A stretch of 64,000 nucleotides of DNA from Snodgrassella alvi. Lineage in GTDB: Bacteria > Pseudomonadota > Gammaproteobacteria > Burkholderiales > Neisseriaceae. The position numbers were made by a program, and so were the translations under genes. The stretch covers positions 25,562 through 89,561 of the forward strand of contig MEIR01000089.1 of NCBI GenBank assembly GCA_002777825.1, given 5' to 3'. Positions 4,135-47,714 of this stretch are shown here, piece after piece (within the stretch, counting starts at the first letter, position 1; the number at the start of each line of letters is the position of its first letter). The notes beneath the pieces were generated by a model, which saw only the letters and a program-made list of their open reading frames with translations, was not told where the DNA came from and did not search any database.

Positions 4135-5115
4135 TTAATGAGTATCCGGCTGCTGTCTGGTTTTCTGCCATGAAGCAAGTATGGCAATCAGTAAGGCACT
4201 GAACACTACTGCCAGTGAAGCAAAAGAAGGAATATGCCACCACTTGGCAACCAGCATTTTGCCGCCAATAAAAGTTAATACCACCGCCAGCCCGTATTTG
4301 AGATAGATAAATTTTTCTACCACATTGGCCAGCAAAAAGTACATCGCGCGCAAACCCAGTACCGCAAGAATATTGGAAGTAAAAACAATAAACGGATCGG
4401 TGGTTACCGCAAATACAGCCGGAATGCTGTCAACGGCAAACACCACATCGCTTAATTCAATCACTACCAAAGTAAGCAGCAAGGGAGTAGCCATGCGCTG
4501 GCCATTTTCAACAGTAAAAAATTTCTCCCGGTTCAACTGCTCACTAACACGCATATGCCGGTGCAGCCAGTGCACCAGTGGATTATCAGCCAAGCCTTTA
4601 TCCTCAGTTTTTTCCGGTAGCATCAGCTTAATACCACTATAAAGCAGAAATACGCCAAACAGATACAGTACCCACTCAAAGCGGCTGACCAGTACCGCAC
4701 CTAAAGCCACCATAATGGCGCGCAGAACAATCGCCCCCAGCACCCCAAAAAGTAAAACCCGATGCTGATATTCAGCCGGTACCTTAAAATAACTGAATAT
4801 CAATACAAATACGAAAATATTGTCGACTGATAGCGATTTTTCCAGCACATAACCTGTGAGAAAATCCATTACCGAATCCGCAGCTACTTCCGAACCAAGC
4901 GCAGGATTATGTGCCAGTTCAAAATACAGCCAGGCAGCAAATCCCAGAGAAACAGCAATCCATACAGTTGTCCACAGCAGGGCTTCTTTTGTACTGACAC
5001 GATGTACACCCTCTTTTTTCAGCGTGAACATATCAATCGTAATCATAACAATCACAATGGCGATAAATACGCCGTAAAATAAGGGTGTACCTACTGAATT
5101 CAGTTGTGGTTGCAT
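4135..5115 (-). CDS. TerC-family integral membrane protein (Alx-like)
   Basis: 326 aa, multi-TM, conserved TerC motifs (LSVDNIFVFVLIF..., ELSDVVFAVDSIPAV). Confidence 0.85.
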   Translation of the reverse strand: MQPQLNSVGTPLFYGVFIAIVIVMITIDMFTLKKEGVHRVSTKEALLWTTVWIAVSLGFAAWLYFELAHNPALGSEVAADSVMDFLTGYVLEKSLSVDNIFVFVLIFSYFKVPAEYQHRVLLFGVLGAIVLRAIMVALGAVLVSRFEWVLYLFGVFLLYSGIKLMLPEKTEDKGLADNPLVHWLHRHMRVSEQLNREKFFTVENGQRMATPLLLTLVVIELSDVVFAVDSIPAVFAVTTDPFIVFTSNILAVLGLRAMYFLLANVVEKFIYLKYGLAVVLTFIGGKMLVAKWWHIPSFASLAVVFSALLIAILASWQKTRQQPDTH

Positions 5116-26288: not shown

Positions 26289-27533
26289 TTATTTATCTTC
26301 TACCTTAGGAAAGTTCAATAATAAATTACGATAGTACTCGTACTGTTTTTGGCGTAATTCAATCTCACGCGGTAAACCCTCGGTGATTGAATTAGTGAGT
26401 ACATCGAATTTATCTAGGATTTTGACAATACGGTCTTGTTCCTCGAGGGAGGGGATGGGCAAGCGATATTTAAGAATAGCTTCTTTATTTCCACGTGGCA
26501 TTTTTGCGCCTTTAGAATGTTGCATATTGTATTCAAAAAAATTATCATTTGCTAAGATATGATATAAATATCTGTAGGTTAACAGATTATTTTTTAGACG
26601 AATGACTAAAACATCACCATTAGTGCCTCCAGAAGAATCTGCCTGCCAAATTTTTTTTAAGTACGGACGAATATTTCCAATTAAAATATCATTGGTGAGA
26701 TATTCTGTAAAACTTCCTTCTTTAGGCACGTGATTTGAATCAGTTTTTCCTGCTCGGTTTTGTAATAAATTATCAACACCTACATAATTTTTTTCATTAA
26801 GTTTATCAAAGCTGATTCGAGTATTTGAATAATTAGCTACTTCGCCTAAAGCCTTCCACTCAACCTCATCCTCTTTAAAGGTCAACAATTGATCACGATA
26901 ATAGTTGTATTGTTTTTTCCGTGCTGTAAGCTCTGCTGTAAGCTCTGCTGTAAGCTCTGCTGTAAGCTCTGTAAATATGTCTAAGATACGGGTAATTTCA
27001 GTCTGTATGTGTAGCGGAGGAATAGGAATTTGAATTTTTTTTAATTCACTCATTGGTAAACTAATAACTGGCGAACCAACAATTTTTTTACTATATTCAT
27101 TTACTATATATTTTGAATTAAATAAATGAGATAAGTATTTTGAAACAACTATTTCTTGAACAGGTTTTATTACATAGACTCCTTCTTTGATATTCCAATT
27201 TTTAGGTTTTTCATCAATAACAGCTGTTTTTCCTACCGTCCCTGTCCCCGAAAATAAGATGTCGCCAGCCTCTAAATTCGAGCGGTTGTTTATAAGCTCT
27301 AAAGCTTGGTTATTAATTTTATCAGTCTTATCAAGGAATACTATCTTTCCATTCTGAATTTCTCGAACAGTTATATAGAAATTCATAGCATCGGATGTAT
27401 TCAACTTAAAGTTATTTCGTGGATTTAGCCCCGTTTTCAAAGATTTTATTACTTCCCCTAATGGTTTCCACTCAACCGCTACCCCATCAAGTAATTTAGC
27501 GATACTATTGTGCATATTTAAATTGTTACTCAT
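26289..27533 (-). CDS. hsdS: Type I R-M specificity subunit (HsdS) with two target-recognition domains and a TAEL-repeat central conserved region
   Basis: 414 aa; duplicated TRD architecture; central ...ELTAELTAELTAELTA...; conserved C-terminal YEYYRNLLL-type motif. Confidence 0.85.
   Translation of the reverse strand: MSNNLNMHNSIAKLLDGVAVEWKPLGEVIKSLKTGLNPRNNFKLNTSDAMNFYITVREIQNGKIVFLDKTDKINNQALELINNRSNLEAGDILFSGTGTVGKTAVIDEKPKNWNIKEGVYVIKPVQEIVVSKYLSHLFNSKYIVNEYSKKIVGSPVISLPMSELKKIQIPIPPLHIQTEITRILDIFTELTAELTAELTAELTARKKQYNYYRDQLLTFKEDEVEWKALGEVANYSNTRISFDKLNEKNYVGVDNLLQNRAGKTDSNHVPKEGSFTEYLTNDILIGNIRPYLKKIWQADSSGGTNGDVLVIRLKNNLLTYRYLYHILANDNFFEYNMQHSKGAKMPRGNKEAILKYRLPIPSLEEQDRIVKILDKFDVLTNSITEGLPREIELRQKQYEYYRNLLLNFPKVEDK
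26923..26970 (-). repeat. Perfect 4x 12-bp tandem repeat (GCTGTAAGCTCT) encoding TAEL repeats in the HsdS central spacer
   Basis: four identical in-frame 12-mers read directly from sequence. Confidence 0.95.
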
Positions 27534-27733
27534 TTCTTGCGACTTTCCTGTTTCGCTTTGTTCGCTAATGCATTGATGGTTTCCAGATAAGATATTTCTA
27601 CCCCACTAGAAATATTTCGTGAACTATGTTGTTGAACTGTTCGGATTTTCCGAACAGTTGCTTTTTTAAAGTAAGCATCAACACGAACTTTTTGATTATT
27701 AACATGATAAATTTGAATGTGATTATTGCTCAT
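27530..27733 (-). CDS. Small hypothetical protein translationally coupled between hsdM and hsdS
   Basis: 67 aa; start overlaps hsdM stop and stop overlaps hsdS start (ATGA-type overlaps); basic C-terminus. Confidence 0.4.
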
Positions 27734-29274
27734 GCTTCAATCTCCGCCACAATTGCATCAATTTGGGCGCGTAAGCTATCAATTTTAGCTACAGTGTCTT
27801 TTAATTCAGCATTAAGCTGGGTGATATCAATAATTTCGCGGGTATCTTCGGCTTCCACATATGAGCTCACCGATAAATTATAGTCATTGTCGGCAATGGT
27901 TTGATTAGCAACCGATTTGGCAAAATATTCGACGTCTTGCTTGCTGGCAAATACTTGCACAATTTCTTCAATATGCTTATCAGTTAGGACATTATTATTG
28001 GTTTCTTTTTTAAACAGTTTGCTGGCATCAATAAATTGCGTGGTTCTGACGGTTTTGTTTTTCGCCAGCACCAAAATATTAACCGCAATCGAGGTACCAT
28101 AAAATAAGTTTGGTGCCAGTGATATCACGGTTTCAACAAAATTATTATCGATTAAATATTTACGAATTTTTTGTTCGGCGCCACCACGATAAAAAATACC
28201 CGGAAAGGTAACAATCGCCGCCCGCCCTCGCTCAGACAAGTAACTTAATGAATGCAGAATAAAGGCAAAATCGGCTTTTGATTTTGGCGCAAGTATGCCA
28301 GCGGGGGCATATCGTTCATCATTGATTAAGGTTGGGTTATCACTGCCAATCCATTTAATTGAATAAGGGGGATTGGAAACAATGGCATCAAATGGCTTTT
28401 CGTTGCCAAATTTAGGATTAAGTAGTGTATCCCCCAAGACAATTTCAAATTTATCGTAGTTGATGTTGTGTAAAAACATATTCATACGGGCAAGATTATA
28501 GGTGGTATGGTTAATTTCCTGACCATAGAATCCGTCCTCAATGATATGCTTATCAAACTGTTTTTTTGCCTGTAATAATAAAGAGCCTGAGCCTGCCGCT
28601 GGGTCATAGATTTTATTGATCTTTGTTTGATTATGTAAGGCTAATTGTGCGATTAATTTGGATACATTCGGCGGAGTGAAAAATTCTCCTCCTGATTTAC
28701 CGGCTTTAGAAGCATAATTAGAGATTAAATATTCATAAGCATCACCAAACACATCAATATGGTTATCTTCAAATTGCCCAAAATCCAGCTCGGCAATGCC
28801 ATTAAGTACGGCGGCTAGCCGTTTGTTTTTATCGGCTACGGTATTGCCTAAGCGGTTGCTGGTGGTGTCAAAATCGGCAAATAACCCTTTAATATCGCTT
28901 TCGGAAGGATAGCCGATAGCTGAACTTTCAATCGCATTAAAAATATTGGCCAAGTGGGTATTTAAGTCTTTATTGGTATTGGCCTCGGCAACGGTATGGC
29001 AGAATAATTGACTTGGATAGATAAAATAGCCTTTGGATTTAATGGCATCCTGTTTGATTTCGTCGGTGATAGCATCATCGGGAATTGATTTATAATCAAT
29101 ACTCTCGTCGCCTGCTTGCATATAATCAGCAAAGTTTTCACTAATAAAGCGATAAAATAAGGTGCCAAGTACATATTGTTTGAAATCCCAGCCATCAACC
29201 GCGCCTCTTACTTCGTCGGCAATTTTCCATATTTGGCGTTGTAATTGGTCTCGTTGCTGGATACTGATGGCCAT
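27730..29274 (-). CDS. hsdM: Type I R-M N6-adenine DNA methyltransferase subunit (HsdM)
   Basis: 514 aa; N-terminal HsdM_N domain, AdoMet motif [10 protein letters not shown] and catalytic NPPY ([11 protein letters not shown]). Confidence 0.9.
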
Positions 29275-29721
29275 GATTAAATTCCAATAAAAATCTGTGT
29301 GTTAAATATTAGGCTTATTGTGATATTTAAGCGGTAATTGTGTATTTTATCAGTATGGCTGCTTATTGGTGCATCAGGGTACAAAATAATATACGCCACA
29401 AGGCAATAATTGTATTATGGGTTCTTCGATATCAAGGTTCTAGCCTGCATTCTATGTATATTGCTTTTATAAGTGGCGATTCATTCTGGCCGCAGATTCT
29501 GTAACAGCTCAGCACATTGCATTTTGCCTGTGCCGATTGAGCATGATTGATTTTCTGGTGTTTGCTGTATTGCTCAGTCATCAATTATTTAATGTTGGTA
29601 GCAGTTGCGAAGGAGGCATCATTACAAGTACTTTATTTTCTTCCATAGCACTTTTTGCAGTAATAAGTTGCATTGAATTTGGTATTTAACCGACTAAGGC
29701 AGAGAAAATCGAAGTGGTCAT

Positions 29722-29821
29722 GGCTGCGGATAATGGCGTTGTTACCCTGATGGGTGATGCAGTAGAAGCACAGCGGGCACTGATTGAATACGATGCCTTA
29801 AATGCGCAGGTAGATGTTTGA
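29722..29821 (+). pseudogene. Orphan diverged copy of the gyrB 3' end (last ~32 codons: KIEVVMAADNGVVTLMGDAVEAQRALIEYDALNAQVDV*)
   Basis: ~75-80% identical to 20623-20726 ([34 protein letters not shown]); no upstream gyrB body. Confidence 0.75.
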
Positions 29822-29837
29822 ATCACTTTATTACATC

Positions 29838-29866
29838 AAAAAAGATGGCATAGCCATCCTTTTTCA
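29838..29866 (+). terminator. Diverged copy of gyrB terminator (AAAAAAGATGGCATAGCCATCCTTTTT)
   Basis: same hairpin as 20746-20775 with 2 substitutions; right-end direct repeat of the island. Confidence 0.7.
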
Positions 29867-29936: not shown

Positions 29937-31163
29937 TCAGCCTTTAACACAGATAACCTGACGTAACTGATGTCTGATTTCTACCAGTTCCTGCTGTGCC
30001 TGCATTACGGCATCGATATCTTTGTACGCCATGGGAATTTCGTCGATTACTTCTGTATCCTTACGACACTCTACATGGGCGGTAGCCTGCATCTGATCGG
30101 CAACGGTGAATCTCCTTTTGGCTTCGGCGCGGCTCATTACCCGCCCTGCACCATGCGAACAGGAATGAAAACTCTCGGTGTTTCCTAAACCGCGCACGAT
30201 ATAACTTTTTGCGCCCATTGAGCCCGGTATAATTCCCAGTTCGCCCTCGCGTGCAGAAACGGCACCTTTACGGGTAACAAAAACATTGTGGCCAAAATGC
30301 CGCTCTTTTTGTACATAGTTATGATGACAGTTTATTGTTTGCAGATGCGTGGTAAACGGCACATCAATCACTTGGCGTAATGCAGCAATGGTGTTGTGCA
30401 TCATTACTTCACGGTTTACGCGGGCAAAATCCTGCGCCCAATGCACAGCTTCCAGATAATCACGACAATATTCGGTGCCTTCGGCAAAATACGCCAGATC
30501 GTTATTGGGCAGGTAGGTATCAATAAAATACTTTTTCATTTCTTTTTGTGCCAGTTCACTGAAATATTTACCAATGGCATGGCCAATACCACGGGAACCA
30601 CTATGCAGCATAATCCATACCTGATCGGTTTCATCCAGACAAACTTCAATAAAATGATTACCGCTGCCAAGTGTTCCCAGATGATGCAAGCTATTGGCTT
30701 TTAAAAAGCGCGGATATTTGCTGGTGAGTTTTTCAAATCCTGGCAATAGCTGCTGCCAGTACTCTTGTACAATCGGCGGCGGATTATGCCAGCTACCTTT
30801 ATCATATTTTTTATTACCCGGAGTAGAACCATGCGGTACTGCCTTTTCAATCGCCAGCCGCAATGGCATCAGGTCTTCCGGCAAATCCTGCGCGGTAAGT
30901 GATAACTGCACCGCCATCATGCCACAGCCGATATCTACGCCAACCGCAGCAGGTATAACTGCACCAGTAGTAGGAATCACGCTACCTATGGTAGAGCCTC
31001 GTCCCAGATGCACATCCGGCATTACAGCAATATGCTTAAAAATAAAGGGCAGTTCTGCGGTTTGCAGCAATTGTGTTTTGGCGATATCTTCTACTGGTAC
31101 GCCTTTAGTCCACATTTTTACCGGACGGGTTTTATCTTCTTTTAATACTTCATATTCTTGCAT
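29937..31163 (-). CDS. rtcB: RNA-splicing ligase RtcB (3'-phosphate/5'-OH RNA ligase)
   Basis: 408 aa; conserved RtcB metal/GTP-binding motifs (HxGxG region SGNHF, CHHNY, GAGR). Confidence 0.9.
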   Translation of the reverse strand: MQEYEVLKEDKTRPVKMWTKGVPVEDIAKTQLLQTAELPFIFKHIAVMPDVHLGRGSTIGSVIPTTGAVIPAAVGVDIGCGMMAVQLSLTAQDLPEDLMPLRLAIEKAVPHGSTPGNKKYDKGSWHNPPPIVQEYWQQLLPGFEKLTSKYPRFLKANSLHHLGTLGSGNHFIEVCLDETDQVWIMLHSGSRGIGHAIGKYFSELAQKEMKKYFIDTYLPNNDLAYFAEGTEYCRDYLEAVHWAQDFARVNREVMMHNTIAALRQVIDVPFTTHLQTINCHHNYVQKERHFGHNVFVTRKGAVSAREGELGIIPGSMGAKSYIVRGLGNTESFHSCSHGAGRVMSRAEAKRRFTVADQMQATAHVECRKDTEVIDEIPMAYKDIDAVMQAQQELVEIRHQLRQVICVKG

Positions 31164-31213
31164 TTTTATCTTTCATTATTTTTCTGTTTAATCAATCAGC
31201 ATAGGTTAGGCTG

Positions 31214-32794
31214 CTATTTTGCCTGAATGTTAATCAAACCATGTAATAACTGATCCAGACCGCCCACAACTGAAATTTTGTCGATGCGTTCAGCAATGCG
31301 TTCCAGTGTTTCCATTTCTTTCAAGCGTAAAGCCACTGGGTTATTTTCCATTACTCTGGCGGTATTCAGCAGGGAGCGGGTGGCGGAAGTTTCTTCGCGG
31401 CGGCGGATTACATTGGCCTGTGCTGCTTTTTCAGCCTCCACTACCTGCGCCAGTATGGTTTTCATGTCGCCCGGCAGAATAATGTCTTTCACACCTACGC
31501 TAATGGTTTCTATTCCGTAACCAGTCATATTTGCCTGCATATGCGCATTGATAACTTCATCAATCACATCCTTGTTTTCCAGCAATTCATCCAGCGTGCG
31601 GGTACCAATTGCTTCGCGTAAGGCAAATTGCAATTGCCGGTACAAGAGTTCCACAGGCTGGGCAGCTTTGGCGAAAGCAGTTAACACATCGGTATAGCAC
31701 CAGTTGGCTACTAGGTTGATACGCAGATTTACTTTGTCGCGGGTTAGTATTTCCTGCCCGGATATTTCTACCGTCTGCAAGCGTGTATCGACGATTTCAA
31801 CACTGATTTCGCGGTTAAAGCGCCAGTAAGCGGTGATGCCGGCATCCAGTAGCTGTTGTACTTGACCATTTACTTTTAATACACCAACATGATAAGCCGG
31901 TACCTGCGCAATCAGTATGCTGCTGTCTCCAATCACTTCTTTCTTACGTAATTTAGGCTGCAATAACTGCTGCACCATTTGTTCAGATAGCTGATAGCCA
32001 TCAGCCAGTTCTATGGTCTGCATGTGCTGCTTGCTGTTATTCTGCCAATATAATCGTTTTGTTCCCGGCGGCAGGATTTCCACCAGTAAATCATCTTCAA
32101 AGCGTAAACCGGCCTGATTGGCACCTACCTGCATCTGTACACAGTATTGCTGCATCTGCTCCGGTGCATTCTGCTCAATCGTGGCGGCCAGCAGGTCATC
32201 GATACGGTTATCCTGTAATTTGAATTTTCCCAGTACAAGCTTATGTTTGAATTCGCACAAGCCAATTACAGATGTGGGCGGAATAATCTGCACAAACTGG
32301 TTATCCACAAACAGAGTACCAATCTGTTCATCCACAAAATAATGCAGTTTTACATTGTCTATACCGGTAATCAGTCTGGCGGTATTTTTGGCCTGTATCA
32401 GTTCCAGTGCCACTTCATCCGGCAAACGGTAGCCCTGCTGCAAAGTCACTTTTTTAATCGATTGCGCTTTATAACTCTGCCAGTAAAGTGCTTTGGTGGC
32501 CGGCATAATGATCTCTACCAGTATGTCTTCTTCATAACGCAAAGCAATTTCATTATCCGCCACATGGACATAAAGACAGTATTTTTCTACTAGTTGCGGA
32601 TAAAAATTAAGCAGTTTTTCGGCGATGGCCGGCTCGATTTCAGTATCGGCCAGATCCACTAGATAATAGGTTATTGCTGAAAAGGGATCCCAGAAAGTAT
32701 GGCGGCCAGCGCTGACAATGGTATTTATCTCATCCCGTTTATTAACAACAGCCAGCTCACCTTTTTTTACATCGATTATGGTCAACATATTCAT
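31214..32794 (-). CDS. SPFH/band-7 (stomatin-like) domain protein with triplicated N-terminal SPFH-start-like module; co-operonic with rtcB
   Basis: C-terminal ...GIETISVGVKDIILPGDMKTILAQVVEAEKAAQANVIRRRE...NPVALRLKEMETLERIA matches stomatin/HflC core; three ~140-aa N-terminal repeats; SD GGAGA before MNMLTIID. Confidence 0.7.
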   Translation of the reverse strand: MNMLTIIDVKKGELAVVNKRDEINTIVSAGRHTFWDPFSAITYYLVDLADTEIEPAIAEKLLNFYPQLVEKYCLYVHVADNEIALRYEEDILVEIIMPATKALYWQSYKAQSIKKVTLQQGYRLPDEVALELIQAKNTARLITGIDNVKLHYFVDEQIGTLFVDNQFVQIIPPTSVIGLCEFKHKLVLGKFKLQDNRIDDLLAATIEQNAPEQMQQYCVQMQVGANQAGLRFEDDLLVEILPPGTKRLYWQNNSKQHMQTIELADGYQLSEQMVQQLLQPKLRKKEVIGDSSILIAQVPAYHVGVLKVNGQVQQLLDAGITAYWRFNREISVEIVDTRLQTVEISGQEILTRDKVNLRINLVANWCYTDVLTAFAKAAQPVELLYRQLQFALREAIGTRTLDELLENKDVIDEVINAHMQANMTGYGIETISVGVKDIILPGDMKTILAQVVEAEKAAQANVIRRREETSATRSLLNTARVMENNPVALRLKEMETLERIAERIDKISVVGGLDQLLHGLINIQAK

Positions 32795-33066
32795 TCTCCA
32801 GTCTATTGCAGCCAGCAAACAAGATGAACACAATCAAACGGATTAAGTAACGGAATAACAGGGGAAAGATTCATCATCATAACCTAATTATCGCCTGATT
32901 ATGATTAATAAATATTTTGCCTGCTATCCGGTTTTTTTACCCAAACAAAACAGCCATGGCTGAGTTTGCCCGGTTAACCGGTTTTTCCTGTGTCTAAGCT
33001 TTTACTACTGTGCTTATTCCCATTTACTGGCTGGTATTGCTTAATACGACAAGTATTACTATGTGA

Positions 33067-33139
33067 TTTTTGAAACAGGAATCGAACCTGTCACAGATTG
33101 GTTTGGTGCCAATTGCTCTATCCAGTGAGCTTTTCAAAA
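33067..33139 (-). ncRNA. tRNA-like element (cloverleaf with Trp-type CCA anticodon but A8, A33 and no encoded CCA) in leader of the rtcB operon
   Basis: minus strand: TTTTGAA-AA-GCTC-ACTGGATA-GAGC-A-ATTGG-CACCAAA-CCAAT-CTGTG-ACAGG-TTCGATT-CCTGT-TTCAAAA-A; perfect 7-bp acceptor, 5-bp anticodon and T stems; canonical T-loop. Confidence 0.55.
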
Positions 33140-33283
33140 ATACTCCGTGAAAGGGAGGTGTCTTGCATACTCAGGAATACATGTTGATAATGCAAATAGA
33201 TTAACCTTGCGGCGAATCCGGCAGCATTCGCTATGCACCTGACTGCCATATCAGACAGCATGTATTACAGACATAGGCTTTAT

Positions 33284-33299
33284 TGCAATTACTGTACCA
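33284..33299 (-). promoter_or_regulatory. Candidate sigma54 (-24/-12) promoter for the tRNA-like/SPFH/rtcB operon
   Basis: minus strand TGGTAC-AGTAA-TTGCA vs consensus TGGCAC-N5-TTGCW with exact GG-GC spacing; adjacent to divergent rtcR; AT-rich UAS region upstream. Confidence 0.35.
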
Positions 33300-33460
33300 A
33301 CAGGTAAATTTCTTTAGGAAATTTTTATAAACTATTATTTTTATTAATTAAATAATTAAATTTTAAAATTATTTGCCAGCTATTTATTGCTTAAATCCAA
33401 CATTATTTTATAAATTTATATATAATTTTATTTATATTTATAAACCAGTAGAACAATCTC

Positions 33461-35089
33461 ATGAACAGGAAAAACGTTGTATTCGGTTTTTTGGGCAATG
33501 TGCTTGACCAGCGCGGTAAAGGCAGAAAACGCTGGGGGCGCTGGCGGCCAACAGTTGATGTCTGTAATCATCCGGAATTGCCGGTATCTCGCTTTGAACT
33601 GCTTTATCACGTCAATGATAACGAGTTACTGGCTGAAATTATTCAGGATATTAAAACCATTGCCCCGGATACGCAGGTTAATCCGGTTGCAGTACATATA
33701 CATGACCCATGGGATTTTGAGGAGGTGTATACCTGTTTACTGGATTTAGCCAAAAGCTATCAATTTGATTATGAACAGGAGAATTATTATTTAAATATCA
33801 CTACCGGCACGCACGTTATGCAGATTTGCTGGTTTTTGCTGGCAGAATCACGCTTTTATCCGGCCAGACTGCTGCAATTATCGCCAACCAAAGGGGTAGC
33901 ACAGCCAGAAACGGTGTTAACTGAGCCGGCAGAGCATCAACAGCTATGCAGCCGCGGACAAATCAATATCATTGACCTGAATCTGAACCGCTACGACCAG
34001 ATTCTGACCCGCTTTCAGCAATACGCCGGCCAAGCTACTGAATTACTCAAATCCGGCATTGCCACCAGAAACCCGCATTACAATCAGCTAATTACTGAAA
34101 TAGAACAGGTAGCCAGCCGCTCGCATGCGCCTATCCTGCTATGCGGCCCTACCGGCGCCGGTAAATCTTTTCTTGCACGGCAAATTTACCAGCTTAAGCT
34201 GAATCAGCATCAGATAAGCGGCCAGTTTGTGGAAATTAACTGCGCTACTCTTACCGGTGATAATGCCATGTCCACTTTATTTGGTCATAGCAAAGGGGCT
34301 TATACGGGTGCCAGCATGGCCAGAAGCGGCCTGCTCAAACAGGCTGATAACGGCCTTTTGTTTCTGGATGAAATCGGCGAACTGGGATTAGATGAACAGG
34401 CTATCCTGCTCAAAGCCATTGAAGAAAAACATTTTTATCCGTTGGGCTCGGATAAACTGGTTTCCAGCCAGTTCCAGCTCATTGCCGGCACCAATAAAGA
34501 CTTAAAACAGGCAATTGCCTGTGGTGCATTCAGGGAAGATTTATACGCACGGATTAATTTATGGAGCTATCAACTGCCCGGGCTGGCAGAACGTAAAGAA
34601 GATATTGAACCAAATATTGATTTTGAGCTGGCACGCTATGCTAAGGAATATGGCACTATGCCACGCTTTAATCAGCAATCCAGAACCCGCTATGTAAATT
34701 TTGCCACTTCGGCTGCTGCACGATGGACGGGCAATTTCCGTGAGCTCACCGCTTCCATTACCCGCATGGCTACACTGGCCACGCAGGGTAATATCACTTT
34801 GACACAGGTTGAAGACGAAATTCAGCGCTTACAGCAACACTGGCAGCAGACAACACCCGCCGATGCACTGATTCCGGTTGAAATTGATGAATTCGACCGC
34901 TATCAGCTAGAAAAGGTGATTGAAGTATGCCGCAAAAGCCGAACTTTATCCGAGGCCGGCCGCTATCTGTTTGCGGTATCACGGGCACAGAAACAGCGTG
35001 CCAATGATGCCGACAGGCTGAAAAAATATCTGGCCAAGTTTGATTTAAGCTGGGAGCAGATAAAAGATAGTGCCTGTAGCAGCGATTAA
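33461..35089 (+). CDS. rtcR: Sigma54-dependent transcriptional activator RtcR (N-terminal CARF domain, AAA+ sigma54-interaction domain, C-terminal HTH)
   Basis: N-terminus MNRKNVVFGFLGNVLD matches RtcR CARF start; Walker A GPTGAGKS, GAFTGA-like GAFREDLYARINLW motif. Confidence 0.9.
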   Translation: MNRKNVVFGFLGNVLDQRGKGRKRWGRWRPTVDVCNHPELPVSRFELLYHVNDNELLAEIIQDIKTIAPDTQVNPVAVHIHDPWDFEEVYTCLLDLAKSYQFDYEQENYYLNITTGTHVMQICWFLLAESRFYPARLLQLSPTKGVAQPETVLTEPAEHQQLCSRGQINIIDLNLNRYDQILTRFQQYAGQATELLKSGIATRNPHYNQLITEIEQVASRSHAPILLCGPTGAGKSFLARQIYQLKLNQHQISGQFVEINCATLTGDNAMSTLFGHSKGAYTGASMARSGLLKQADNGLLFLDEIGELGLDEQAILLKAIEEKHFYPLGSDKLVSSQFQLIAGTNKDLKQAIACGAFREDLYARINLWSYQLPGLAERKEDIEPNIDFELARYAKEYGTMPRFNQQSRTRYVNFATSAAARWTGNFRELTASITRMATLATQGNITLTQVEDEIQRLQQHWQQTTPADALIPVEIDEFDRYQLEKVIEVCRKSRTLSEAGRYLFAVSRAQKQRANDADRLKKYLAKFDLSWEQIKDSACSSD

Positions 35090-41006: not shown

Positions 41007-41082
<76 letters not shown>

Positions 41083-45596: not shown

Positions 45597-47714
45597 TTAC
45601 TGGCTGCCGCTCTGTGCTGAAGTCTGTGCGGCCAGTTTGCTCAAGAGTTGCTTCACCTCCCGGGCAATGCGTTCGACTACTGCGGTTGGATAGCGGTGTG
45701 CCTGATAGGTAATTATCATGCTCAGGCTATGCTGGTTGTTAATCTGGTTTTCCATGATTTCAAAGTGCAGGCCGAACATGGATTCGTTACGTTCAGGCAG
45801 TATTTGCCGGTATGGGATGGCACCTTGCGGAGTGTTTAGCTGGCCATTTAAGGCGTTGTTTGTGTGGATATGAATGTAAACATCAAACATTAAGCCCTGA
45901 TTATCGGGGATGCCTAAAGCCTGCTGGATATGATTAATCGGGATATCGGCATACTCTATGGACTCGTTGATTTGTTTGCTGGTGTCGGCCAGTAATGAGG
46001 TGAATGGTTGCTGCGGATTAAAGCGGATACGGTGCGCTACCATGGTGGTAAAGTAGCCAACGGTATCGAAATAGTTGGGGTCGGTACGGCCTGAAGCAGA
46101 GGTACCGATTACGATTTCGGTTAAATTACCCTCTTTTTGCAGTACGGTGGCAATGGCGGTATAAAACACGCTGAATATAGAGGCATGGTGTTTTTTGGTA
46201 AAGGCTGAGATGTTGCGATGGAAGGCTGAATCGAATTTGATTTCCAGCCATTCAATCTGTGGAGCGGTATTTTGCGATGCTGTCGCGACTGTCGAATTTA
46301 AAGTCAGTCCTTTTACAGCTCCTTGCAGATGCTTGCACCAGTAATCGAGATGTTGCTGGTTAATGCCGTTTTGCTGCTGCATGCGGGCAAATTCGTGAAT
46401 GCTGGGAACGCTGTTCGGCCAGACGGGTGCTTTGCCTTGCAGCCGTGCTGCATAGGCTATATTTAAATCGGCCATGATGGTGTTTAAAGACCACTCGTCT
46501 ATTACCATGTGATGCACCAGAAACGATAAAATCGTGTTGCCATTGTGTGCTTTTAACAGGCGGATTCGGAGTGGCAGTTCGCGTGTGAGATCGAATTTAT
46601 AGGCTGCTTCAGTAGCTAAGGTGGCATCTTTGCTGTCGCTGCTCGGCAAGAACCATTGATGCTGTTTAAGCTCGGTAATGGGTACGGTATATTGCAAGGT
46701 TTGTTGGTGTGAGGTTTTAAACAGGGTGCGTAATCCAACGTGGCGGATAATTAAATCATTAAATGCCTGATGTAAGGCTTCTTCATTAACCGGCTGCTGA
46801 AATTCTATAGCGAACGGTAGGTTATAAACGGGGCTGAAATCAAAAGCGCTGTAAGCCTGCCATAAAAAATCCTGCGCCAGTGTTAAGGGTGCCTGTTGTT
46901 CAGGCTGTATCTGGGTTGCGGAAGCAACTGGCTGCTCTTGCTGCGCAATATTGGCCAGTGCACGGGCGGATGGTGATTTAAAGAAATCATTGAAGTTCAG
47001 TTTAATGCCATGGTTGTTCTGTAAGTTGCCAATAGCTCGGGTGGCCAGCAGTGAATGGCCGCCAAAATCAAAAAAGTCATCGTCAAGGGTCATATTCGGT
47101 TCAGCCAGTGTGCTTCTGAACTCTGTCAGTATGATGCTGGCCAGTGCTGCTACGTTGGTATGCTGTGTTTTCTTGGCTGGTGCCGGATTTAAACTGCTTA
47201 AGTCTACTGGTGTGAGCTCGAGCTGATGTTCTGAACCGCTGTAGTTGTTGTAGCTGGTGCGGATTTCTTTGATTAATCCATTCAGTGTGAATTGTTCCTC
47301 AAGTATGGGATGCAAGCGAAGTGCCAGAATTACGCTGTTTTCTGTGCTGATTACTGTTGCCAGAAAAGGCGGGGTGATTTCGGGCTGCCAGTGTTGCTGT
47401 GCCAATGTAGATAATAGTGCAGTAACCTGCCCTTGCGCTGCTTGCTCATTCTGTACGCAGGTTGTCCAATCTGTATCGGGGTATTTGTATAAATCGCCGT
47501 CTTCGGTGAATTCATAGCGGGTATTCAATTCTGTATGCGTTGCCAGCAGGCTGTGGATACTTTTATGCAGGATGGCTGAATTGGGATATGGATTCAGCAG
47601 CCATGCTGCAAGCTGATATTTCACTTGTTCTGGTTCTTGTAACTGTTGCATCCAGATATATTCTTCACGCTCATTGGCTAAAGATGGTGCTGTTGCTGTA
47701 TTTGTATCTGACAT
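45597..47714 (-). CDS. NRPS PCP-condensation didomain protein (AngM-like)
   Basis: thiolation motif FFDFGGHSLLATRAI; condensation motif HHMVIDEWS. Confidence 0.8.
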   Translation of the reverse strand: MSDTNTATAPSLANEREEYIWMQQLQEPEQVKYQLAAWLLNPYPNSAILHKSIHSLLATHTELNTRYEFTEDGDLYKYPDTDWTTCVQNEQAAQGQVTALLSTLAQQHWQPEITPPFLATVISTENSVILALRLHPILEEQFTLNGLIKEIRTSYNNYSGSEHQLELTPVDLSSLNPAPAKKTQHTNVAALASIILTEFRSTLAEPNMTLDDDFFDFGGHSLLATRAIGNLQNNHGIKLNFNDFFKSPSARALANIAQQEQPVASATQIQPEQQAPLTLAQDFLWQAYSAFDFSPVYNLPFAIEFQQPVNEEALHQAFNDLIIRHVGLRTLFKTSHQQTLQYTVPITELKQHQWFLPSSDSKDATLATEAAYKFDLTRELPLRIRLLKAHNGNTILSFLVHHMVIDEWSLNTIMADLNIAYAARLQGKAPVWPNSVPSIHEFARMQQQNGINQQHLDYWCKHLQGAVKGLTLNSTVATASQNTAPQIEWLEIKFDSAFHRNISAFTKKHHASIFSVFYTAIATVLQKEGNLTEIVIGTSASGRTDPNYFDTVGYFTTMVAHRIRFNPQQPFTSLLADTSKQINESIEYADIPINHIQQALGIPDNQGLMFDVYIHIHTNNALNGQLNTPQGAIPYRQILPERNESMFGLHFEIMENQINNQHSLSMIITYQAHRYPTAVVERIAREVKQLLSKLAAQTSAQSGSQ

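Follow-up and report, generated by a model that had tools for sequence, protein, structure and literature searches.

In a stretch of 64,000 nucleotides (nt) of Snodgrassella alvi DNA (assembly GCA_002777825.1, contig MEIR01000089.1, positions 25,562 to 89,561 of the forward strand; hereafter 'the window', numbered from its first letter) we identified a locus that is probably an RtcB RNA-repair system built on a Band-7/SPFH ('slipin') protein and an associated tRNA-like RNA, under the control of RtcR and sigma54. We put the probability of this explanation at about 70%, a figure that covers jointly the layout of the locus, the processing of its leader, the assembly of the slipin and a cofactor role towards RtcB. 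The anatomy of the locus and its conservation are demonstrated by the comparisons below. The Snodgrassella copy is minimal, with one RNA, one SPFH protein, one ligase and one regulator, and has neither the RtcA cyclase nor RlaP. A preliminary description of this DNA had listed rtcR, a -24/-12 motif, a 73-nt tRNA-like element, an SPFH gene and rtcB, and we found each of these parts where it had been placed. The features of the locus are as follows:

33461-35089, plus strand: rtcR, encoding a CARF-type sensor, a sigma54-interacting AAA+ domain and an AAA+ lid; divergent from the operon
33284-33299, minus strand: putative -24/-12 sigma54-type motif, TGGTAC-N5-TTGCA (TGGTACAGTAATTGCA), found by pattern match
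33140-33273, minus strand: 5' leader of about 134 nt (alignments and RNAalifold)
33067-33139, minus strand: tRNA-like RNA of 73 nt, 'b7a-tRNA' family (ARAGORN, Rfam and a family covariance model)
32853-32929, minus strand: long leader hairpin with an internal loop, 5'-GG[CA] opposite [CC]CC-3' (RNAalifold)
31214-32788, minus strand: slipin-family SPFH/Band-7 protein, probably 524 amino acids (aa) (Pfam Band_7 and homologue alignment)
29937-31163, minus strand: rtcB, 3'-phosphate/2',3'-cyclic-phosphate RNA ligase (Pfam RtcB, E = 1.9e-127)
29838-29858, minus strand: intrinsic terminator, GATGGC-TAT-GCCATC followed by TTTTTT (read from the sequence; the same hairpin appeared in a plus-strand scan)

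The slipin gene is linked to rtcR and rtcB

We compared the locus with 80 loci from Beta- and Gammaproteobacteria that encode slipin relatives; some of the contigs are incomplete, so the gene counts are lower bounds. rtcR was found divergently upstream of the slipin gene in about 69 of the 80 loci and rtcB immediately downstream in about 62, and in most of them the slipin lies between the two. The four-part operon divergent from rtcR that had been proposed for this DNA is therefore real and conserved. Fuller slipin operons add the nucleotidyltransferase RlaP (41/80), RtcA (24/80) and a small zf_Tbcl protein (22/80). Since rtcA was within the flank in only 24 loci, with none in the other 56, its absence is the commoner state. 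The preliminary description had already noted that rtcA is missing here, and indeed a tblastn search of the 64-kb window for rtcA, RlaP or their remnants returned no match at E <= 1e-3. Between the rtcB terminator and the next gene, hsdM, there are about 560 nt (29275-29837) with no open reading frame (ORF) of 60 aa or more, in which no RtcA or RlaP remnant was detected.

The slipin family is large, with 7,678 matches among the 8,000 candidates scored, and its members include forms of 375-381 aa from P. aeruginosa, Burkholderia and some E. coli. The minimal operon of the window recurs, with proteins about 70% identical, in Gilliamella, a bee-gut genus of Gammaproteobacteria. Relatives at 88% identity have a different genomic context, and a 77% relative shares the ligA-galU synteny. 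These differing contexts, together with a case of rtcR loss described below, indicate that the module moves between genomes and that its regulator can be lost. A megablast comparison with a plasmid collection gave no match.

Directly downstream of the operon, on the minus strand, are Type I restriction-modification genes (window 26289-29274; hsdM at 27730-29274 and hsdS at 26289-27533), which, with the differing contexts among relatives, suggests a variable, island-like region. A different arrangement was seen in E. coli (L088:4200-7400), where a 375-aa slipin is paired with RlaP alone, with no rtcR or rtcB, beside the tail-fibre and baseplate genes of a P2-like prophage; the leader keeps only the T-arm CGGGUUCGAUUCCCG (4813-4827), and no PADLOC defence family matched.

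The tRNA-like RNA is conserved in its body and not in its anticodon loop

The tRNA-like element is located 279 nt upstream of the slipin start, on the same strand. ARAGORN called it a tRNA-Trp(CCA) (33065-33140, minus strand), and in a sensitive run the Rfam tRNA model matched 33067-33139 with 49 bits (E = 2e-9), above the gathering threshold; a whole-window run with fast filters had missed it. The preliminary description had suggested comparing the leader with both the tRNA and Y RNA models of Rfam: besides tRNA, neither a Y RNA nor any other Rfam family appeared in the window leader at a credible E-value in the sensitive run. A second tRNA-like copy was not found in this leader with the filters off. 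The window copy forms a full cloverleaf, with a 7-bp acceptor stem made entirely of A-U and G-C pairs, the anticodon loop CACCAAA and no encoded CCA. It carries A33 and A8, at positions where tRNAs nearly always have U.

In 46 of the 80 loci ARAGORN reported a tRNA-like gene upstream of the slipin, at a distance of a few hundred nt and on its strand, with 'anticodons' that were arbitrary or malformed. A family covariance model (R1), built from 37 ARAGORN-called elements, placed the element on the same strand upstream of the slipin in 63 of the 80 loci and gave the window copy 75.1 bits. In the alignment of the 37 sequences, 95.4% of the cells in the cloverleaf pairing were standard pairs, compared with 32-44% in slid registers. 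Compensatory changes were present in 14 of the 20 pairs, and the observed covariation was reached by none of 500 shuffles, so the cloverleaf of the 73-nt element proposed earlier is supported by covariation. The D arm (TAGCTCA..GGTAGAGC) and the T arm (GGGTTCGAnTCCC) hardly vary, and covariation is seen at each pair of the anticodon stem. The anticodon loop, on the other hand, ranges from 4 to 17 nt across the family, with UUCG or GNRA tetraloops in many members; among close relatives it reads CACCAAA (window), UACCAAA, UCAGGAA, CACGGGA, CAAGGGA or CACCA. Judging from sequence, this tRNA-shaped RNA is selected for its body, not for decoding, and its Trp anticodon is accidental. In ten enterobacterial and Pseudomonas loci without the element, an Rfam search of the leaders found nothing.

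Canonical tRNA genes also occur near some of these elements. In the Burkholderiales loci L062:4220-5709, L072:4130-5744, L063 and L076, which have no rtcR, 3-6 of them stand just upstream of the tRNA-like RNA, slipin and rtcB, and an HNH endonuclease gene lies between the tRNA array and the tRNA-like RNA in L062 and L072, the two examined. The window itself contains a canonical tRNA-Phe(GAA) gene (41007-41082, plus strand; 72.4 bits in Rfam), which serves as an internal contrast to the tRNA-like element.

The RNA lies in the leader of a predicted sigma54-type transcription unit

By itself, the -24/-12 pattern at 33284-33299 is not significant: the window has 2 matches where 0.77 would be expected, and 2 or more turned up in 17 of 100 shuffles. 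What makes it credible is its conservation: of 63 related loci, 51 carry a TGGCAC-N5-TTGCW-type motif (with at most 1 mismatch) 115-199 nt 5' of the tRNA-like element. In the window the spacing between motif and RNA is 144 nt, and an 88%-identical relative (L081) has TGGTACGGTAATTGCA at identical spacing. This agrees with the preliminary description on two points, namely a putative -24/-12 promoter upstream of the operon and a tRNA-like RNA within the leader downstream of it. From the motif, transcription would be expected to start near 33273. An independent sigma70 promoter for the slipin found no convincing support, since the only match was a weak one (9/12) inside the tRNA-like element and promoter-like sites were fewer than in shuffles. 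Elsewhere in the window, a perfect sigma54-like motif (TGGCACTTCGCTTGCA) is found at 47311-47326 (minus strand), within a 705-aa ORF (45597-47714); it is probably a chance match.

The whole leader, of about 485 nt, folds better than its shuffles (z = -5.25) and is conserved between Snodgrassella and Gilliamella in alignments. Its 5' part has blocks common to Gilliamella (CATAGCGAAT at 33226-33235 and ATTATCAACATGTAT at 33177-33191) and a small hairpin of 4 bp with a 7-nt loop (33143-33157). In most lineages the roughly 170 nt before the RNA hold a second, degenerate tRNA-like unit with the T-arm GGGTTCGAnTCCC and a ATGCCGCC motif (L004, L018, L021 and others), and Pseudomonas leaders have two recognizable tandem units. 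In the window and in Gilliamella this upstream degenerate unit is reduced to the conserved blocks and the small 7-nt-loop hairpin.

On the other side of the RNA, the long hairpin at 32853-32929 stops 64 nt short of the slipin's start codon. Its stem shows compensatory changes in an independent RNAalifold alignment of 6 relatives, and the GG[CA]/[CC]CC motif with paired flanks was found at a consistent offset in 24 of 67 leaders, compared with 51 of 1340 shuffles (3.8%). This second leader hairpin may be previously undescribed. Between the RNA and the slipin, at 32943-32962, a T-run follows a weak hairpin of 4 bp, but relatives do not keep it, and we rejected it as a conserved attenuator or terminator; no conserved terminator was apparent in this interval of the aligned leaders, where no dedicated test for one was made.

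The slipin has the SPFH fold and no membrane anchor

The preliminary description had assigned the SPFH protein 539 aa. The SPFH domain is indeed there (Band_7 at residues 310-481 of the longer ORF, 31214-32833, minus strand), and this ORF of 539 aa begins at a TTG. The closest homologue, from Snodgrassella communis, is 97% identical and has 524 aa, and homologues begin with MLxxIxVKK. These homologue starts, and a GGAG ribosome-binding site, favour the ATG at 32788, so the protein is probably 524 aa long.

The structure model predicts five beta units of about 72 aa (two duplicated modules of about 145 aa and a unit leading into SPFH), followed by the SPFH core and long C-terminal helices. An SPFH fold with long helices is also what membrane SPFH scaffolds have (stomatin, HflK/C, QmcA, flotillin), and the slipin departs from them in lacking the N-terminal anchor: no transmembrane segment was found in it, the highest 19-residue Kyte-Doolittle mean being 1.17. 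Scans of seven ORFs (the three of the locus and four flanking) gave no NfeD domain. The label 'membrane-scaffold-type protein' used at first is not supported, given this hydropathy maximum and a modelled structure that begins with beta strands. The same seven ORFs gave no TROVE domain; the whole window was not searched for rsr.

RtcB, aligned to solved RtcB structures, keeps the DvH, CG, GSGNHF, HHN and SHGAGR motifs, and the terminator about 80 nt past its stop closes the two-gene operon. The rtcR product matches RtcR/CARF (E = 2.2e-70) and Sigma54_activat (E = 4.3e-49) in Pfam, the NCBIfam RtcR equivalog (763.6 bits, cutoff 650) and RtcR--CARF_AAA_HTH in PADLOC (816 bits); the domain scan listed no separate HTH (helix-turn-helix) match. 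None of the anti-phage defence families in PADLOC matched the slipin, RtcB or RlaP.

Relation to known Rtc systems

[quoted passage not shown] We found no later experimental validation of the Band-7/b7a-tRNA/RtcB system in the literature. The abstract of the 2016 paper reportedly speaks of SPFH/Band-7 scaffolds with 'a novel tRNA-like molecule'. The Snodgrassella locus has the same composition, with Band_7 and RtcB encoded by adjacent genes on one strand and a tRNA-like non-coding RNA beside them, and the same slipin clade and RNA family also occur in Pseudomonas, Burkholderia, Rhodocyclales and others. It is thus a further, minimal copy of an operon kind already predicted and not a new architecture. 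The 'non-canonical regulon' of the preliminary description is borne out as an Rtc module of its own, with Ro/Rsr replaced by an SPFH protein. Unlike the fuller Band-7/b7a-tRNA operons, the Snodgrassella copy has no RlaP, RtcA or small zinc-finger (zf_Tbcl) protein, its slipin has an additional duplicated module at the N-terminus and measures 524 aa where 375-381 aa is usual, and the upstream degenerate tRNA-like unit of other operons has shrunk to a small hairpin. The second leader hairpin, the N-terminal repeat architecture and a slipin without a membrane anchor may be small additions to what had been predicted.

A close counterpart is the rtc locus of P. aeruginosa, with the order rtcR (PA4581), PA4581.1, PA4582/PaFlo8, rtcB, PA4584 (RlaP) and rtcA. 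PaFlo8 (PA4582, PA14_60630) has been treated among a flotillin-like set, and its gene is embedded in this locus (PMC13086221). PA4581.1, annotated as 'tRNA-Arg4', lies between rtcR and PA4582, has no CCA and is detectable by quantitative reverse-transcription PCR (qRT-PCR) (PMC13637947). Order and orientation are the same as in Snodgrassella, down to the tRNA-like gene without CCA between rtcR and the slipin gene, and over the 70% of the query that the two have in common the slipin (P0101) shows 57% identity. In contrast, RlaP and RtcA are further members of the P. aeruginosa cluster, and related Pseudomonas loci (among them L019, L020, L025 and L030) have two tandem tRNA-like units.

Like rsr-yrlBA-rtcBA of Salmonella, where RtcR is reported to be activated by cyclic-phosphate-ended tRNA fragments (PMC7790460), the Snodgrassella locus combines RtcR/sigma54 control with RtcB, a putative ring-shaped scaffold protein and a non-coding RNA, encoded in the operon, that contains a tRNA-like module. 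It differs in having an SPFH and not a TROVE protein, in the absence of rtcA, and in an RNA that is a near-complete cloverleaf, whereas the Salmonella Y RNA has a Ro-binding stem. With rtcBA of E. coli K-12 it shares the RtcR equivalog, the divergent sigma54-type promoter and RtcB; that canonical operon, in published accounts, contains only rtcB and rtcA and lacks both an SPFH gene and a tRNA-like RNA, and the Snodgrassella one has no rtcA.

Proposed mechanism and alternative explanations

The processing, binding and function that we infer would be the following. An RtcR/sigma54-inducible transcript would comprise the 5' leader of about 134 nt, the tRNA-shaped RNA, the second hairpin, slipin, rtcB and the intrinsic terminator. 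Processing of the leader would release the tRNA-like RNA, by RNase P at the 5' end and by 3' trimming, possibly with addition of CCA. The soluble slipin may oligomerize through its C-terminal helices into a ring or cage, by analogy with SPFH proteins whose assemblies have been solved, and would bind the RNA through its conserved tRNA body (the D/T elbow and the acceptor end). The slipin-RNA complex could then be a cofactor or scaffold for RtcB in resealing cleaved tRNA or rRNA, a role that would parallel the one proposed for Ro60/Rsr with YrlA in the Salmonella operon. We favour this explanation because of the linkage between slipin, rtcR and rtcB, the recurrence of the RNA in 63 of 80 loci, its covariation, the conserved sigma54 motif, the terminator placed after rtcB, the variable anticodon loop set against nearly invariant D and T arms, the domain assignments, and an SPFH fold with long C-terminal helices and without a transmembrane segment.

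One could argue that the element is simply a tRNA-Trp gene, or the remnant of a tRNA integration site, lying by chance beside unrelated genes, as the ARAGORN call and the Rfam score above the gathering threshold would have it. A33, A8, the lack of an encoded CCA and the loops of orthologous elements, which are not conserved and may be malformed or replaced by tetraloops, led us to reject a real tRNA-Trp. The position and strand of the element are, moreover, fixed relative to the slipin in 63 loci from two classes; the homologous loci, where loops vary and flanks are conserved, thus bear out the mimic of the preliminary description over a bona fide tRNA-Trp with unrelated flanks, and chance proximity is hardly credible. 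It is also very improbable that the SPFH protein is a membrane-microdomain scaffold that merely shares an operon with RNA-repair genes. SPFH proteins are usually membrane-associated, and PaFlo8 was studied within a flotillin-like set (PMC13086221), but the Snodgrassella protein has no hydrophobic anchor, no NfeD domain accompanies it in the ORFs scanned, and across many genera its gene is tightly linked to rtcB, RlaP, rtcA and rtcR.

The 'bait or activator' idea of the preliminary description is a further alternative. The RNA would be a decoy cut by anticodon nucleases, either shielding real tRNAs or yielding cyclic-phosphate fragments that activate RtcR, which is reported to respond to such tRNA fragments (PMC7790460); a competitive-inhibitor role has been suggested for YrlA in the same work. 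The window copy and some relatives do keep a 7-nt anticodon-like loop, and its fast change between close relatives could reflect an arms race. Yet many members have a UUCG or GNRA tetraloop or a loop of 4-6 nt, unlikely targets for a nuclease, and the element is conserved all the same. The replacement of the loop by tetraloops across the family indicates that the tRNA body, and not a nuclease target site, is what is conserved, and this weakens the idea, as do A33 in place of U33 in the window copy and the fact that YrlA fragments were not seen in Salmonella (PMC7790460). We consider a bait improbable. Alternatively, the leader elements might act only in cis, on processing by RNase P or RNase III, on the stability of the mRNA or on how slipin and rtcB are translated, and no RNA-protein particle would form in trans. 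This would fit a leader that folds better than shuffles, a hairpin ending 64 nt ahead of the start codon, and a Snodgrassella-Gilliamella conservation that spans the whole leader. However, the b7a-tRNA class is occasionally found beside Rsr, and YrlA beside Band-7 proteins, according to the 2018 preprint (10.1101/312249), which suggests a partner role in trans, and in P. aeruginosa the RNA reaches about half the abundance of canonical tRNAs (PMC13637947). A purely cis-acting leader seems unlikely to us.

Some observations weigh against the RtcR-controlled slipin-RNA-RtcB system that we propose. Deletion of paFlo8 gave no phenotype in standard assays (PMC13086221). The level of PA4581.1 was unchanged while the Rtc proteins were strongly up-regulated (PMC13637947), which either speaks against a purely sigma54-driven co-expression or means that the RNA is very stable. 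Enterobacterial slipin loci do without the full tRNA-like unit. Finally, a relative with a 77%-identical slipin and the shared ligA-galU synteny (L084) has lost rtcR and the sigma54 motif and keeps the leader, the RNA, slipin and rtcB (L084:1836-3001); regulation through RtcR is thus not indispensable, or something else has taken its place. Given this relative and the P. aeruginosa qRT-PCR results, a strict dependence on RtcR should not be assumed.

The proposed system could be carried one step further. A composite non-coding RNA from the leader of about 485 nt (5' domain, tRNA-like unit and GG[CA]/[CC]CC hairpin) and a soluble SPFH protein that forms a ring or cage and has vault-like N-terminal repeats might make up a damage-inducible bacterial ribonucleoprotein compartment in which RtcB meets broken tRNA or rRNA ends. 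Such a compartment would be functionally analogous, and might even be related, to the vault of eukaryotes, which consists of major vault protein with vault RNA. We offer this extension as a speculation that is unlikely to be right.

Significance

The slipin system is widespread and includes P. aeruginosa and some E. coli. For annotation, an element that ARAGORN calls tRNA-Trp here, and that is called tRNA-Arg, Met, Ser and others elsewhere, does not belong in a count of decoding tRNAs. Snodgrassella is a bee-gut symbiont of the family Neisseriaceae that can be cultured and genetically manipulated. Its minimal copy would be a clean system in which to ask what a tRNA-shaped RNA does in RNA repair, what role a soluble SPFH oligomer has away from membranes, and whether RtcR works without RtcA.

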